Translations under genes and position numbers: made by a program
The notes under the pieces: generated by a model
Seen by the model: only the letters and a program-made list of their open reading frames with translations
The model's database searches: none
Told to the model about the DNA's origin: nothing
UHGV virus genome: UHGV-0096616
Reading direction: 5' to 3' (one strand)
Source: a virus
Length of the DNA: 42,863 nucleotides
In this document: in pieces, positions 6,750-41,043 of the stretch
Position numbering within the stretch: the first letter of the stretch is position 1
How the letters are laid out: each line of letters starts with the position of its first letter

Positions 6750-6766
6750 ATTACCTTTCGGGTAAT
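6750..6766. promoter_or_regulatory. palindrome ATTACCTTTCGGGTAAT (site 1 of 13), putative operator
   Basis: TTACC-N5-GGTAA dyad; between the tail spike start and the LexA-box gene. Confidence 0.5.
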
Positions 6767-6802
6767 TTGCAAAACGTGCTGGATAGCAAACAAATTATTT
6801 GA

Positions 6803-6822
6803 TACTGTATAAATATACAGTT
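6803..6822 (+). promoter_or_regulatory. LexA (SOS) box TACTGTATAAATATACAGTT
   Basis: CTGT-N8-ACAG with AT-rich spacer, 17/20 match to consensus TACTGTATATATATACAGTA as I recall it, ~20 bp upstream of the 6842 start. Confidence 0.7.
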
Positions 6823-6841
6823 ATTGCATGGAGAAGATAAG

Positions 6842-7099
6842 ATGCAGCAGTATCACTATCCACTGGAAGACGGATTTACCGAAAGGATTCACACGCCGGG
6901 AGGCGTCAGGTCACTGGTGGAGGGATCGCACTTGATGAAATTACTCCGGGATCTCGATAAGGATGGATTTAATGTCGATGGCCCACTTGCCGAACTGACT
7001 GCACTGATTAACTACGTCACCAGCTCACAGATGTCTATGCAGGATCTGCAAACACATCTCGACTATTGTGCCGAACAATTACGAAAACAAACCAGATAA
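6842..7099 (+). CDS. small SOS-controlled protein (85 aa), putative antirepressor; shares a C-terminal domain with the Bro-N protein
   Basis: ATG with GGAG RBS; LexA box upstream; C-terminal ~50 aa align by eye with the C-terminus of the 7415-8110 product. Confidence 0.45.
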   Translation: MQQYHYPLEDGFTERIHTPGGVRSLVEGSHLMKLLRDLDKDGFNVDGPLAELTALINYVTSSQMSMQDLQTHLDYCAEQLRKQTR

Positions 7100-7129
7100 G
7101 GTTTGCAATTACCAAATGGAGTGCTTATA

Positions 7130-7146
7130 TTTACCTTTGCGGTAAA
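7130..7146. promoter_or_regulatory. palindrome TTTACCTTTGCGGTAAA (site 2) overlapping a sigma70-like promoter (-35 TTGCAA 7103-7108, -10 TATATT 7126-7131)
   Basis: Dyad plus 17-bp-spaced promoter hexamers. Confidence 0.5.
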
Positions 7147-7149
7147 TTT

Positions 7150-7257
7150 ACATCGCACTCCTCTTGTGCCATAGTAATCGGGCACTGGCAAAATCCAGTG
7201 CCGGGATTGGCGTCCCGGATTACTAAAAGGCGCATTCACCGCGCAAGCGGTTTTTTT
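7150..7257 (+). ncRNA. candidate small RNA / attenuating leader: two stem-loops plus intrinsic terminator (ACCGC-gcaa-GCGGT then T7)
   Basis: Hairpins at 7181-7202 and 7201-7218, terminator at 7238-7257, no ORF; sits between the promoter/operator and the Bro-N gene. Confidence 0.35.
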
Positions 7258-7414
7258 ATGCGTATAGCACGGCCACATTCGTATTATGGTGGGCTGTGTG
7301 GGGGCACCGAAAGGTGCGCCGGGTCCTTTTAGCCGGTTACGCCAACCCTGCACAGCTCACCACCAACCGATTGGCGTCGGTAGTGGTGATTAACCAGACT
7401 AAAAGGTAACCACT

Positions 7415-8110
7415 ATGACAGCTACAAAAAGCACGTCCATTTTTTCTTTCGAATCCCAAGCCGATATACGAGTAATCGTCATTAATGGTGAGCCATGGTT
7501 TATCGCTTCAGATGTTTGTCGGGCTATAGGCATAGCAAACCATCGAGATGCTGTTCGAAAACTTGATGATGATGAGAAGGGCGTCGCTTCAACCGACACC
7601 CCTGGCGGTGAGCAAGAATCGATCATCATCTCCGAGTCAGGCCTCTACACACTGATCCTCCGCTGCCGCGACGCAGTGACACCAGGCACTATCCCATACC
7701 GCTTTCGTAAATGGGTTACAGGTGAGGTTCTTCCTCAGATCCGCCGCACCGGAAGTTACATTAAAAACTCGCTCCCGCAGGAAGAGCGCATAAAGATGGT
7801 TGCCGACCAGGTAGCCAACGCCACAGCATCAGCAGTGATGCAGGCGATGAAGATAGAGAACAAAACCTACAGTGCCCCACTGAAGCCCGGCTACCGCAGC
7901 CTGATTCATTCGCCGTCTGGTGTTCTCGGCCTGACGGAGAACTCACTGCTGATGAATCTGCTGAACCAGTTACAGGACGACGGGCACGACGTATCGGGCG
8001 CGGCGGCGGAGCTGACCACCATGTTCTGCTACATCGTCGGTGTGAGCAAATGCCTGCGTGATATCCAGACACACGCGGAGTACATCAACGACAAGGCTGG
8101 GTTCTTCTGA
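7415..8110 (+). CDS. Bro-N domain protein (231 aa), putative antirepressor
   Basis: N-terminal Bro-N-like domain; C-terminal domain homologous to the 6842-7099 product; RBS AAGG. Confidence 0.65.
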   Translation: MTATKSTSIFSFESQADIRVIVINGEPWFIASDVCRAIGIANHRDAVRKLDDDEKGVASTDTPGGEQESIIISESGLYTLILRCRDAVTPGTIPYRFRKWVTGEVLPQIRRTGSYIKNSLPQEERIKMVADQVANATASAVMQAMKIENKTYSAPLKPGYRSLIHSPSGVLGLTENSLLMNLLNQLQDDGHDVSGAAAELTTMFCYIVGVSKCLRDIQTHAEYINDKAGFF

Positions 8111-8180
8111 CGGCGGCGGCACAGGGACGTGCCTTTAAATAATTCTGTACAGATTGCAGACTGGGGGTGAATAGCGTACT

Positions 8181-8197
8181 ATTACCTTAAAGGTAAA
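8181..8197. promoter_or_regulatory. palindrome ATTACCTTAAAGGTAAA (site 3) just downstream of promoter (-35 TTGCAG 8154-8159, -10 TACTAT 8177-8182)
   Basis: Dyad overlapping -10/+1 and adjacent to the AAGGAGG RBS of the 8209 ORF. Confidence 0.5.
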
Positions 8198-8208
8198 GGA
8201 GGCGCGAT

Positions 8209-8376
8209 ATGACAGCGTTGAAAAATCGTACTCAGCACAATGAACAAGCCAAGCAATGCTGGGATGTCATTGGAAAAGTTATGCTTGGCCGCGCAAGCAA
8301 AGAGCGCGACAAGGATATGGTTTACCAGACAGGAACATCTTTCAGCGACTTCAAGGCGGCATTTCGCTCCAAATAG
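8209..8376 (+). CDS. small hypothetical protein (55 aa)
   Basis: Strong RBS AAGGAGG 7 nt upstream of ATG; first gene of a two-gene accessory unit. Confidence 0.4.
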   Translation: MTALKNRTQHNEQAKQCWDVIGKVMLGRASKERDKDMVYQTGTSFSDFKAAFRSK

Positions 8377-8396
8377 AAGCACATTAGGAGTTTGTC

Positions 8397-8837
8397 TTGA
8401 AGTTTAACATTAGAATATCTAATAGTTTTCTAAATGGGGAAAGCAACACCCATTTCGCTGTAGACGGACCTTTCCTTACTGACGATGAAATAAAAATCAT
8501 ACAAAGGTTTTTAGAAGATGTTGCCAATGGAAGGGCGCTTGTTGGAAAAAACAAGCCATCGTGGGTTGATGATAACCATGATAAAATTCCCGGCTCAGAC
8601 AATTATGAGCAAGAGAATTATTGGCATTATCATTGTGGGCCAACATGGTATCCAAACACATTTAAGAATTATACCATTAACTTAAATTTCAACCCTGGCG
8701 GAATGCATTCTAATGAATGCATTCATTATGCAAAAAATGATAATGAAATTGTCGTTGTTGGATTTTCAAGAGAACACATACCTTTCCTTTCATCAGATGG
8801 AAACGACAATCCGCTTTTTTATGATGAAGAAGAATAG
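8397..8837 (+). CDS. AT-rich accessory (moron) protein, 146 aa, acidic C-terminus, unknown function
   Basis: TTG start with AGGAG RBS; visibly much lower GC than neighbours; followed by intrinsic terminator; no family recognised. Confidence 0.5.
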   Translation: MKFNIRISNSFLNGESNTHFAVDGPFLTDDEIKIIQRFLEDVANGRALVGKNKPSWVDDNHDKIPGSDNYEQENYWHYHCGPTWYPNTFKNYTINLNFNPGGMHSNECIHYAKNDNEIVVVGFSREHIPFLSSDGNDNPLFYDEEE

Positions 8838-8859
8838 CCCGCGGCGCGGGCTTTTTTGT
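8838..8859 (+). terminator. intrinsic terminator (GCCCG-cggcg-CGGGC then TTTTTT)
   Basis: GC hairpin plus T-run immediately after the 8837 stop. Confidence 0.65.
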
Positions 8860-25822: not shown

Positions 25823-25899
25823 GTGGCATTAGCTCAGTTGGACAGACCAACCGCCTTCTAAGCGGTTGGTCGCAGGTTCGAATCCTGCATGCCACGCCA
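25823..25899 (+). tRNA. tRNA-Arg (anticodon UCU)
   Basis: Cloverleaf read by hand: acceptor stem GTGGCAT/ATGCCAC, T-arm GCAGG-TTCGAAT-CCTGC, anticodon loop CTTCTAA, 3-prime GCCA; one D-stem mismatch. Confidence 0.85.
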
Positions 25900-35145: not shown

Positions 35146-35228
35146 AGCTATTGCCTGATATTTATTTCAGATAATAAATATTCACCCATAAGGTAACAAA
35201 AATCAAGGATAGTTACCCATGAGGTGCA

Positions 35229-35245
35229 TTTACCTGTTGGGTAAT
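35229..35245. promoter_or_regulatory. palindrome TTTACCTGTTGGGTAAT (site 10) in the repressor/cro divergent region, with extra GGTAAC/GTTACC half-sites at 35192-35218
   Basis: Dyad in the 154-bp intergenic switch region. Confidence 0.5.
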
Positions 35246-35299: not shown

Positions 35300-35884
35300 A
35301 TGAAAAGTATCCAGGACGTCCGCAGGCAAAATCTCAACGACTTGATCGACCGTGAATTCAATGGTGTTCAGACGCGGATGGCTGAAAAACTTGGAACTCA
35401 GGCAAATCTGGTAAACCGCTGGGCTCTTGGTAAGAAGGTTATCGGCGATCAGGTTGCGCGAAAAATTGAAGCTGCCGCCAATAAACCCCGTAACTGGCTT
35501 GATATCGATCGCTCGCTTTCTCAGGAAGGTTTTCAGCCTGTCGGCCCAAGCGACATTGGCCAGCTGGCGGCTCACAACCTGGAACGCTGGATGAGCGAAA
35601 GCCGCGACCTTTCAACACAGGGAAAACTTCACCGCGCATCCGGCGTAGCCCAGGTGACAATCAGCCGCCTGTTAAACAATGAGGTCAGCGTTTCCATTTC
35701 CACCCTGGAGAATGTTGCATCCGCATTCGGGCGTCACGGCTATGAATTACTGATTCACCCGCACGACCCTGCGACCATCAACTATGATCGCTCGCGCTAC
35801 GCATTGTTACCCGAAACCGAGAAAGCAAAGATCGAAAGTTACATTGAATTTGTCATCAACCAGAACGAAAAAAACAAACAATAA
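35300..35884 (+). CDS. CI-like prophage repressor with two HTH domains and no S24 peptidase domain (194 aa)
   Basis: Two XRE-type HTH segments; divergent from cro-like operon; followed by a terminator. Confidence 0.6.
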   Translation: MKSIQDVRRQNLNDLIDREFNGVQTRMAEKLGTQANLVNRWALGKKVIGDQVARKIEAAANKPRNWLDIDRSLSQEGFQPVGPSDIGQLAAHNLERWMSESRDLSTQGKLHRASGVAQVTISRLLNNEVSVSISTLENVASAFGRHGYELLIHPHDPATINYDRSRYALLPETEKAKIESYIEFVINQNEKNKQ

Positions 35885-39792: not shown

Positions 39793-41043
39793 TTATTCCC
39801 CCGCCATCCACTTCTCAAACTTCGACGGGGAGAACGGAATCAGATCCGTATGCTCCCCGTTAATCCAGGAATCAATCATATCGGACCACTGCTGCAACAT
39901 GTAGGCGCGCTGTCTGGCGTATTCCGCTTTGTTATATACGGCGCGCACACCTTTCTGCTCATGTGCCAGAGCCTTTTCAATCCAGTCTGAAGGATAACCA
40001 GCCTCATGCAACAACGTACTGGCTGTACGGCGCATATCGTGTACGGTGAAGTCCTGAATATGCTCACCATCTTCATTTATTATTTTCACCGTTCTGTCGA
40101 TCAGAGAGTTCAGCGCGGCATTAGATAATGGCTTCCTGAAATTGTAACGACCAGGAACCAGATATTCACTTCCACCAGCGCACATCTGCAACCCGACCAA
40201 TATATCCTGAGCCTGTTTAGGCAGGTAAATAACATGCGCCCGGCTTCCCTTCATGCGGTCTGAAGGAATTGTCCATGTCCATTTTTTAAAATCTATTTCA
40301 TCCCACGTTGCATTGGTGAATTCGCCTTTACGAACCATAGTGATAAGCACCAGCTTTAAAGCCATTTTCATAGTGCCCATAGCACCAATGGCATCCAGCG
40401 TGCGGAAGAACAGACCAATTTCTTCTGGTGTCAGTGTTCGCTCTCGTGGTTTAAATATGGCGATAGACGAAGGTTTAATGTCAGCAGCAGGATTAAACAA
40501 ACCATGACCACGGTCATTGGCGTGACGGTATACGCTGCTGATGATCTCCCTGGCCTGTACTGCTGTTGCCCGACCACCGCGTTCGACAATCCGGTCACAC
40601 AAATCACGAACCATCGATGTGGTAATTTCAGCCATCATTTTGTTGCCAAGAACCGGAAGTATGTCACGGTCGATCACCGCCTGCTTCATTGCGCGGGTAC
40701 TTTCAGCCAGGATGACGTGTTTCATATAACTGTCGGTATGTACCGCAAACGTCTCGGCACCACGAATCTTTTTGATACCGTCACGTTTAGCCGCAGCCGG
40801 CGACTGGCCTGCTTTAAGCAGCTTCTTTGCAGCAATCAGTTCTTCTCGCGCTTCTGCCAGGCTGATACCGTCACGCCCATACTGCCCGATTACCAGTGTT
40901 TCGCGGCGACCGTTGATACGGTAGTCATAGCGAAACGAGACCGTACCTGACGTAAGCACAGCTACATACAGCCCGTCACGATCGGAAACTTTGTACAGTT
41001 TGTCCTGTGGCTTGAGGTTTTTTAATTTTGTATCGGTAAGCAC
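39793..41043 (-). CDS. int: tyrosine integrase, P4-like family (416 aa)
   Basis: N-terminal Arm-type domain, C-terminal catalytic domain with conserved R...H..R...Y region; adjacent to attR. Confidence 0.9.
   Translation of the reverse strand: MLTDTKLKNLKPQDKLYKVSDRDGLYVAVLTSGTVSFRYDYRINGRRETLVIGQYGRDGISLAEAREELIAAKKLLKAGQSPAAAKRDGIKKIRGAETFAVHTDSYMKHVILAESTRAMKQAVIDRDILPVLGNKMMAEITTSMVRDLCDRIVERGGRATAVQAREIISSVYRHANDRGHGLFNPAADIKPSSIAIFKPRERTLTPEEIGLFFRTLDAIGAMGTMKMALKLVLITMVRKGEFTNATWDEIDFKKWTWTIPSDRMKGSRAHVIYLPKQAQDILVGLQMCAGGSEYLVPGRYNFRKPLSNAALNSLIDRTVKIINEDGEHIQDFTVHDMRRTASTLLHEAGYPSDWIEKALAHEQKGVRAVYNKAEYARQRAYMLQQWSDMIDSWINGEHTDLIPFSPSKFEKWMAGE

Follow-up and report, generated by a model that had tools for sequence, protein, structure and literature searches.

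Two genes that share an Ant domain

Positions 6750-8110 of the virus genome UHGV-0096616 hold two genes on the same strand. The first, ant, encodes a protein of 85 amino acids (aa), and the second encodes a 231-aa fusion of a Bro-N domain to a diverged Ant domain. The 315 nucleotides (nt) between them (7100-7414) contain an IsrK-type small RNA (sRNA) and a C4-type antisense RNA, and a repressor gene, rep, lies elsewhere in the genome. The whole stretch of 42,863 nt that was analysed is called the window below. By its sequence, the window is an entire phiV10/TL-2011b-like (epsilon15-type) Uetakevirus podovirus prophage inserted at guaA. The region is 94-99% identical to phiV10, TL-2011b, vB_EcoP_ZX5 (ZX5) and further Escherichia phages of the genus Uetakevirus, the O157 typing phages 9 and 10 among them; the prophage encodes an integrase (39793-41043) and adjoins guaA. 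The same gene is given as the attachment site of ZX5, phiV10 and epsilon15 in passages of the ZX5 paper (PMC9782041), which agrees with the window.

The 85-aa product is a small antirepressor of the SPC32H type. It is 88% identical (tblastn) to the protein encoded by a gene that the GenBank records of the Salmonella phages SPC32H and SPC32N name 'ant: anti-repressor protein', and its residues 2-84 match PDB entry 5D50_E ('Anti-repressor protein') with an E value of 4e-47 (phmmer). Most phage and genome records, the GenBank record of ZX5 included, call the small Ant a 'hypothetical protein'. It is of 'unknown function' in PHROGs (phrog_450) and has no Pfam family; no Pfam model covers the Ant domain, the sole match being a spurious sub-threshold one to DUF724. 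The annotation can be corrected, as a homologue has a crystal structure, 5D50_E being the sole relative with a solved structure.

A LexA box close to the consensus had been noted upstream of this gene in the initial annotation, and the observation held. The CTGT-N8-ACAG core of the box is perfect. Its end lies 19 nt from the ATG at 6842, and GGAG is found at about 6830. It is the sole near-consensus site in the 42.9-kb window, and none appeared in 100 shuffles. The distance between box and ant is constant in the E. coli, Enterobacter and Salmonella relatives, SPC32H included. Between 19600 and 20200, the GenBank records of SPC32H and SPC32N differ at two bases, one of which changes ACAG, a half-site of the box 5' of ant, to AAAG. 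Kim and Ryu are said to have found in 2013 that SPC32H Rep stays uncleaved in the SOS response and that ant is repressed by LexA, and to have traced constitutive Ant in SPC32N to a single base change in the LexA box; this reported change agrees with the difference between the two records. For the SPC32H proteins, it has been described that the DNA-bound form of Rep is a tetramer, which is disassembled by an Ant tetramer that binds two Rep dimers (PMC9638917, PMC9986798). An earlier proposal for the window, that induction depends on LexA through an antirepressor of a non-cleavable repressor, is supported by the 88% identity to SPC32H Ant, by matches to 5D50_A and 5D50_E and by the SPC32N change in the homologous box. 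Judged by these homologies, the LexA-Ant-Rep core is an already known, published SPC32H-type system.

In the Klebsiella relatives, the box 5' of ant is ATATGTATATATATACAGTA, one of its half-sites being ATGT and not CTGT (L007 1740-1860, L008 590-720, L009 1200-1320). Such a degenerate box is a weaker LexA site, and SOS control might be leakier. No second LexA box was found for the fusion gene, the other CTGT-N8-ACAG matches in the window (21473 and 26015) being without an AT-rich centre. Candidates for the ant promoter picked by hand, TTGCAA-17-ACAAAT and TGGATA-17-TACTGT, were too weak to place it.

The Bro-N domain that had been assigned to the 231-aa product was recovered at residues 17-107 (PF02498, E 2.3e-21, Pfam), and the fusion matches phrog_130 and phrog_245, 'anti-repressor Ant'. 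Its residues 150-223 align with residues 2-75 of the small Ant, with 31 of 74 positions identical (42%; BLASTP, E 2e-15). The homology first suggested between the two genes is therefore real, but it is not limited to about 50 C-terminal residues: because the alignment covers residues 2-75, the shared part amounts to nearly the whole short protein. Residues 150-226 of the fusion also match residues 3-79 of 5D50_E (E 1.9e-13). Pfam gave no match to a C-terminal KilAC/ANT (PF03374) or P22_AR_C domain in the fusion, the C-terminus of which is of the SPC32H-Ant type.

The small and the fused Ant domains fall into two clades, 35-40% identical to each other, with identities of 58-86% within the small clade and 49-99% within the fused one. 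Twenty residues are invariant in both, and H165, D189-G190, E199 and H220 are examples of positions conserved in the two clades. Since each clade spans phages of E. coli, Enterobacter and Klebsiella at this low mutual identity, the Ant duplication must be old; a recent tandem duplication is ruled out by the two diverged clades across these hosts. At least four Bro-N variants are joined to one type of C-terminal part. Some of them are common to E. coli and Klebsiella phages with C-terminal domains only 49% identical, and in phiv142-3 the N-terminus of the fusion is of the AntA type, a close homologue of it carrying PF08346. In the phage collection, the full-length fusion is limited to records that also hold a Rep homologue. 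Relative to the window, the C-terminal domain is 99, 80 and 49% identical in the E. coli, Enterobacter and Klebsiella lineages, and Rep is 100, 78 and 45% identical.

Natural 84-aa hybrids also occur, in which an N-terminal half of the small-Ant type and a C-terminal half of the fused type are joined at the shared DGHDVSGAAAE (L016 3001-3255, which equals P0076; also P0069). In one such prophage an operator and a LexA-like box precede the hybrid, the 3' flank of which matches that of the fusion gene; IsrK, C4 and Bro-N have been lost from it. The structure of these hybrids indicates recombination between the two paralogues.

The window fusion is 99.6% identical to ORF4 of ZX5. According to passages of the ZX5 paper, overexpression of ORF4 during infection brought the titre of lysogens down from 10^9 to 10^6 plaque-forming units (PFU)/mL and reduced rep mRNA by 75% (PMC9782041); LexA is unmentioned in the searched passages of that paper. 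We infer from sequence that the fused Ant domain binds Rep. The occurrence of a short form next to a fused one had been regarded as unusual, and this view had to be given up. Full-length Bro-N-Ant fusions form more than 120 clusters at 90% identity, from E. coli, Salmonella, Citrobacter, Enterobacter, Klebsiella and Shigella, and at least 80% of 6750-8110 is present in 238 of 5426 complete E. coli genomes (about 4%).

The RNA cassette, the repressor and its candidate operators

At its 3' end, the IsrK-type sRNA has an intrinsic terminator (stem at 7238-7251, then seven T), and the element stops at 7257; the fusion gene begins 158 nt 3' of it. Position 1 of the Rfam isrK model falls at 7182, in agreement with the start expected from the promoter-like site at 7147-7175. 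The -10 block of that site, GTGCCATAGT, hardly varies among the aligned loci and has equivalents in Stx phage PA28 and in APSE-7. The c4-a1b1 model RF03163 overlaps IsrK with 45.1 bits, slightly below its gathering threshold of 46.7. Hexamers of the forms TTGnnn and TAnnAT recur at the same spacing as in the upstream site at 7103-7131, even where the upstream DNA is unrelated, and this site is tentatively taken as an upstream promoter of the RNA cassette.

Two loop elements of the C4-type RNA, CCUUUUAG (7325-7332) and ACGCCAA (7339-7345), have targets in IsrK, a1 (UUGGCGU, 7207-7213) and b1 (CUAAAAGG, 7223-7230), and a second set of targets, a2 and b2, downstream of C4. The letters follow the order of appearance, and other annotations may have a and b swapped. 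The b2 element contains the Shine-Dalgarno sequence AAAGG, 8 nt 5' of the fusion ATG. In the window, the complementarity of C4 to a2 and b2 comprises 8 + 7 = 15 bp.

Pairing was followed through an alignment of 13 loci, namely the window, six E. coli phages, Enterobacter phage Tyrion, three Klebsiella phages, PA28 and APSE-7. Each of the 11 related loci has an isrK/C4 pair 5' of the fusion. In PA28 and APSE-7, it lies 5' of unrelated antirepressor-type genes (ORF6N + P22_AR_C in PA28; Bro-N plus an unknown domain in APSE-7), and in APSE genomes the cassette is annotated as such. The loop and its target change together, from GGCGU/ACGCC to GGUCU/AGACC in four phages, to GAGAC/GUCUC in Kp4865-1 and to CGCAU/AUGCG in APSE-7; the b element of C4 and its targets co-change similarly across the 13 loci. 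For C4 with a2 and b2, 90.8% of the cells form standard pairs and eight pairs are changed on both sides, while the best slid control is 54% paired. For C4 with a1 and b1, the values are 97.4%, seven pairs and 49%. In neither case did any of 500 shuffles reach the observed covariation score. These column-based counts are too low for HEMP4, phiv142-3 and KpOXA245 owing to alignment indels, and by eye all three pair.

As the C4 loops are complementary both to IsrK and to sites at the ribosome-binding site (RBS) of the fusion, and covary with them across 13 phages, the fusion is predicted to be under RNA control. The three-way pairing of C4, IsrK and the fusion RBS is, on this comparative evidence, control of the P1-immI/Gifsy-1-IsrK type and not direct control by LexA. 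Open reading frames (ORFs) inside C4, 7286-7393 and 7296-7409, were considered as an orf45/icd-like leader peptide and dismissed, since they are not conserved as ORFs and b2 lies over the Shine-Dalgarno of the fusion itself. No icd-type leader ORF coupled to the fusion was found in the span between C4 and the ATG at 7415, which is only 47 nt.

The gap between ant and the IsrK/C4 pair is a hot spot of insertion (L014 1972-3060; L011 1974-2889; L009 1662-2120). TL-2011b and EC.W1-9 have about 0.9-1.1 kb of opposite-strand genes between ant and the cassette. In the Klebsiella phage ST512-KPC3phi13.3, the gap holds a pair of genes that, judged by sequence, resembles a HicA/HicB-type toxin-antitoxin system, with its own operator-like palindrome 5' of it.

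The repressor is a full-length homologue of SPC32H Rep, to which it is 42% identical; its residues 1-190 match 5D50_A ('Repressor') with an E value of 4e-42. Its description as a protein with two helix-turn-helix (HTH) domains and no S24 autoproteolysis domain was borne out by a match to HTH_3 at residues 106-147, a weaker HTH-like match at the N-terminus and the lack of a Pfam match to Peptidase_S24. Of the records in the phage collection, 36 hold Rep, a set nearly identical to the 35 with Ant, and the small Ant is still 88% identical where Rep is only 42% identical. The rep product is the presumed target of both Ant domains.

The palindrome TTACC-N5-GGTAA is found at 16 sites in the window (0.64 expected) and, despite the 42% identity of the two Rep proteins, at 18 sites in SPC32H (0.52 expected). 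Across the prophage, these palindromes mostly lie directly 5' of transcription units. By analogy with the scattered C1 operators of P1, we infer that they form a genome-wide set of operators for Rep and probably for Cro. An equivalent of the palindrome at 7131-7145 is present in 11 of 11 aligned Uetakevirus-type loci. The position at 6751-6765 is also occupied in SPC32H and in most relatives; the palindrome there could belong to the divergent promoter of the tailspike gene and not to ant.

A further unit (8154-8852) follows the fusion gene. It opens with a promoter-like TTGCAG-17-TACTAT, the -10/+1 region of which is overlapped by the operator-like palindrome at 8182-8196, and contains two ORFs of unknown function, of 55 aa (8209-8376, phrog_8607) and 146 aa (8397-8837, phrog_5954). 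A bidirectional terminator at 8836-8852 ends the unit. The cargo at this position differs among relatives, an example being a YafO toxin in L016. The prophage also carries a tRNA-Arg gene (anticodon TCT) at 25823-25899; one is annotated in the SPC32H record as well. The coordinates of the main features are collected in Table 1.

Table 1. Positions of the genes, RNA elements and candidate control sites in the window
Feature	Position	Strand	Description
Operator-like palindrome TTACCTTTCGGGTAA	6751-6765	.	Divergent tailspike-ant gap; adjoins TTGCAA hexamer
LexA box TACTGTATAAATATACAGTT	6803-6822	+	2 mismatches to 20-bp consensus
ant	6842-7099	+	85-aa SPC32H-type small antirepressor; SPC32H Ant homology
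Promoter-like TTGCAA-17-TATATT	7103-7131	+	Tentative upstream cassette promoter; consensus scan
Operator-like palindrome TTACCTTTGCGGTAA	7131-7145	.	Over -10 of upstream promoter-like site; adjoins -35 of IsrK promoter-like site
IsrK promoter-like TTTACA-17-CATAGT	7147-7175	+	TG-extended; consensus scan; start near 7182
IsrK-type sRNA	7182-7257	+	Rfam RF01394, 77.9 bits (gathering 50)
C4-type antisense RNA	7282-7367	+	Rfam RF01695 (clan CL00128), 79.2 bits (gathering 45); full model matched
C4 target a2, UUGGCGU	7371-7377	+	Downstream of C4
C4 target b2, CUAAAAGG	7399-7406	+	Downstream of C4
Fusion gene	7415-8110	+	231 aa; Bro-N nt 7463-7735, helical linker, diverged Ant domain nt 7862-8092
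Operator-like palindromes	35182-35244	.	rep/cro-like divergent gap; two copies (three in the equivalent SPC32H gap)
rep	35300-35884	+	Non-cleavable SPC32H-type repressor; 5D50_A match
TTACC-N5-GGTAA sites	3673, 6751, 7131, 8182, 25486, 26103, 29005, 29023, 32837, 32899, 34845, 35182, 35230, 35942, 36004, 41086

Proposed regulation and its alternatives

We consider it probable that the stretch 6750-8110 serves a phiV10/epsilon15-type prophage as its antirepressor ('anti-immunity') locus, with two modules directed at one repressor, an SOS-controlled Ant and an RNA-gated fusion. In the first module, host LexA would occupy 6803-6822 in a lysogen and keep ant off. DNA damage would remove LexA, and the 85-aa Ant would then be made, bind Rep and take it off its operators, leading to lytic growth. 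In the second module, a promoter near 7147-7175, beside a Rep-type operator, would produce the IsrK-like sRNA. The majority of cassette transcripts would end at the terminator at 7238-7257, owing to which IsrK should be the main product whenever the cassette promoter is active; transcripts that read through would carry the C4-type RNA and the fusion mRNA. The two C4 loops would pair with a2 and b2 and, as b2 lies over the Shine-Dalgarno of the fusion, an excess of C4, such as that in an established lysogen, would keep the fusion untranslated. Since a1 and b1 are present in IsrK, the IsrK-type RNA would compete for C4. As regards timing, we deduce that the fusion would be expressed in the absence of C4, directly after infection, or once IsrK-type RNA outnumbers C4. 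A fall in Rep would raise transcription of the cassette, C4 would be outnumbered and the fusion would be made, to act on Rep via its Ant domain. The 'two tiers of control' mentioned in the initial annotation were thus right in spirit, but the second tier, with its own promoter-like sites, its IsrK-like sRNA and terminator and its C4 RNA, had gone unseen.

Several observations weigh against this reading. No sigma-70-like site was found by consensus scan around the LexA box, and the ant promoter is unplaced. The fused clade is without the last helix of the small Ant and only 36-42% identical to small Ants. The AlphaFold2 model of the fusion, calculated from a 25-sequence alignment, reached a mean predicted local distance difference test (pLDDT) value of 51 and a predicted template modelling (pTM) score of 0.33; the poor model is likely due to Ant being an obligate intertwined tetramer. 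In phiV10, the copy of the fusion gene (L002 3263-3942) is frameshifted inside the Ant domain, giving a 194-aa 'anti-immunity protein' and a 29-aa ORF. Because this phage was isolated and sequenced as viable, the fusion is dispensable for it. All 12 Salmonella phage records, that of SPC32H included, are without the RNA cassette and the fusion. Moreover, the evidence for an operator role of TTACC-N5-GGTAA is its distribution, and the palindrome beside the -35 of IsrK could activate rather than repress.

The common strand of the two genes would also suit a single SOS operon, in which ant and the fusion are co-transcribed from the LexA-controlled promoter as short and long isoforms that answer DNA damage. 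A terminator scan of the window found no + strand terminator between the ant stop at 7099 and 7238, so some read-through from the ant promoter into the cassette is likely. Nevertheless, we regard this arrangement as highly improbable. An intrinsic terminator (7238-7257) and an RBS-masking C4 RNA stand between the genes, and promoter-like sites with conserved -10 blocks lie 5' of IsrK. In TL-2011b, EC.W1-9 and ST512-KPC3phi13.3, inserted genes of 0.6-1.1 kb, in the first two on the opposite strand, separate ant from the fusion. The RNA cassette remains joined to the fusion despite these insertions, which argues that the fusion is not simply the distal gene of an ant operon. The cassette furthermore precedes antirepressor genes in phages without a LexA box close by. 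A more serious alternative, though still an unlikely one, is that the fusion acts at infection only, as an anti-immunity or lysis-lysogeny factor like the Ant of P1 or P22, with no role in induction, its adjacency to ant being positional. It differs from the two-module explanation solely in timing. The C4-controlled Ant of P1 is a secondary antirepressor that must be blocked for lysogeny to be established (PMC8198154). In N15, as far as the passages searched go, the RNA-controlled immA is set apart from the LexA-controlled antC required for induction. In addition, the phiV10 copy is frameshifted, and the ZX5 assay, as given in passages of PMC9782041, concerned lysogen formation during infection and not induction. 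Against this stand the contribution of IsrK/AnrP to induction of the Gifsy-1 prophage, stated in passages of PMC4825925, and the operator-like site at the cassette promoter, which would tie output to the level of Rep in a lysogen.

It is also conceivable that the Ant-like domain of the fusion is a mere tetramerisation module of a Bro-N DNA-binding protein whose function has nothing to do with Rep and might be, for instance, host takeover or the countering of another element. SPC32H Ant is a tetramer (PMC9638917), the fusion clade is 36-40% identical to the small Ants with a different C-terminal end, and the function of the Bro-N domain is described as unsettled in passages of PMC9782041. The shuffled part of the protein is moreover the N-terminal domain, which could carry the specificity. 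We give this account the least credence of all. The full-length fusion of the phage collection is found solely in Rep-homologue records, the identity of its C-terminal domain follows that of Rep in three lineages, and 20 residues are invariant across both clades. Hybrids that keep just the Ant-type domain persist under a LexA box, and overexpression in ZX5 cut both lysogeny and rep mRNA (passages of PMC9782041).

Beyond the two-module reading lies a more speculative one, which we put forward tentatively and rather doubt: the modules may form a single circuit, with a feed-forward and a positive-feedback step that would make induction irreversible. Because no + strand terminator lies between the ant stop and 7238-7257, the SOS-induced ant mRNA should end with the a1/b1 sites and could titrate C4. 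Ant would at the same time displace Rep from the operator of the cassette promoter. Sponging of C4 and removal of Rep would together shift the ratio of IsrK to C4, and a second, Bro-N-tethered Ant would be translated. The covarying C4 classes would add specificity of immunity at the RNA level; if so, at least five loop/target classes would serve this purpose among otherwise homoimmune Uetakeviruses.

Comparison with known systems

The LexA-Ant-Rep core adds nothing new, as the homologous system has been solved by genetics and crystal structure. What seems worth recording is that one Rep-binding-type domain is used twice in a locus, under a LexA box in one copy and under an IsrK/C4 switch in the other. 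This combination, in which adjacent antirepressors have a common Rep-binding-type domain and the fused one has an exchangeable N-terminus, was not found described in the searchable literature. The exchangeable N-termini favour a modular view of 'Bro-N antirepressors', with a generic N-module and RNA leader and a repressor-specific C-terminal domain. The locus also offers a tractable E. coli system for the contribution of Bro-N to an antirepressor and for the interplay of IsrK-type and C4-type RNAs, which was left open in the Gifsy-1 work. Since the carriers of the module include relatives of O157 and O103 phages, it also bears on the induction of common prophages.

The closest counterpart is the Ant-Rep system of SPC32H (PDB 5D4Z, 5D50). 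The two systems are alike in the 88% identical Ant, in a full-length Rep homologue without an autocleavage domain, in the distance from LexA box to ant, in the position beside the tailspike gene and in the TTACC-N5-GGTAA palindromes. They differ in that SPC32H has the small Ant alone, followed by a terminator, without IsrK/C4 RNAs or a Bro-N fusion, and in the 42% identity of Rep. Tum of phage 186 and the Fels-2 and Gifsy antirepressors resemble the 85-aa protein in being small, in being controlled by LexA and in inactivating a non-cleavable repressor to which they bind. The initial annotation had placed the locus with them, and this kinship did not stand: the family is that of SPC32H Ant, to which Tum and the Gifsy antirepressors are analogous in function alone. 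Searches of Pfam, PHROGs and PDB gave no link of Tum, GfoA or GftA to the 85-aa protein, and no direct comparison was made.

Dual antirepressor routes in one phage are already known, as far as the searched passages go, from N15 (immA and antC) and Gifsy-1 (IsrK-AnrP and gfoA). In Gifsy-1, according to passages of PMC4825925, read-through at a leaky IsrK terminator yields the mRNA of the antirepressor AnrP, the translation of which is activated in trans by short IsrK, and a processed RNA 3' of IsrK is complementary to IsrK. The order of the elements, IsrK with a leaky terminator, processed RNA and antirepressor gene, is that of the window, and a separate small LexA-controlled antirepressor, gfoA, is described in passages of PMC3121763. 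Gifsy-1 differs, in the same passages, in that translation proceeds via orf45 and in that its two antirepressors are not adjacent. No domain common to the two is mentioned in the searched passages, their sequences being uncompared, whereas the pair in the window shares a domain at a distance of 315 nt. N15 likewise combines an RNA-controlled immA locus (a small processed RNA and AntA/Icd/AntB) with a LexA-controlled antC, as stated in the passages searched, and the Bro-N part of the window fusion is 44% identical to a stretch across N15 genes 30-31, gene 30 being annotated as anti-repressor Ant. Its two loci are apart, it is a telomere phage with another repressor, and no common domain is mentioned in those passages.

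The RNA cassette most resembles the immI locus of P1 and P7 (c4, icd, ant1/ant2). For P1, full repression of the antirepressor is known to need the C4 antisense RNA in addition to C1 (PMC8198154). In both systems, a C4-family RNA comes from the antirepressor transcript and directs two loops against a1/b1 and RBS-side a2/b2, repressor-type operators, in the window a candidate one, lie at the promoter, and the loop and target sequences vary between phages. Citron and Schuster reportedly found in 1990 that such loop/target differences set apart the specificities of P1 and P7. The window is distinguished by the lack of an icd-like leader ORF, owing to which b2 covers the Shine-Dalgarno of the fusion itself, and by an effector domain that is SPC32H-Ant-like. 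In addition, its cassette stands beside a separate LexA-controlled antirepressor with the same domain.

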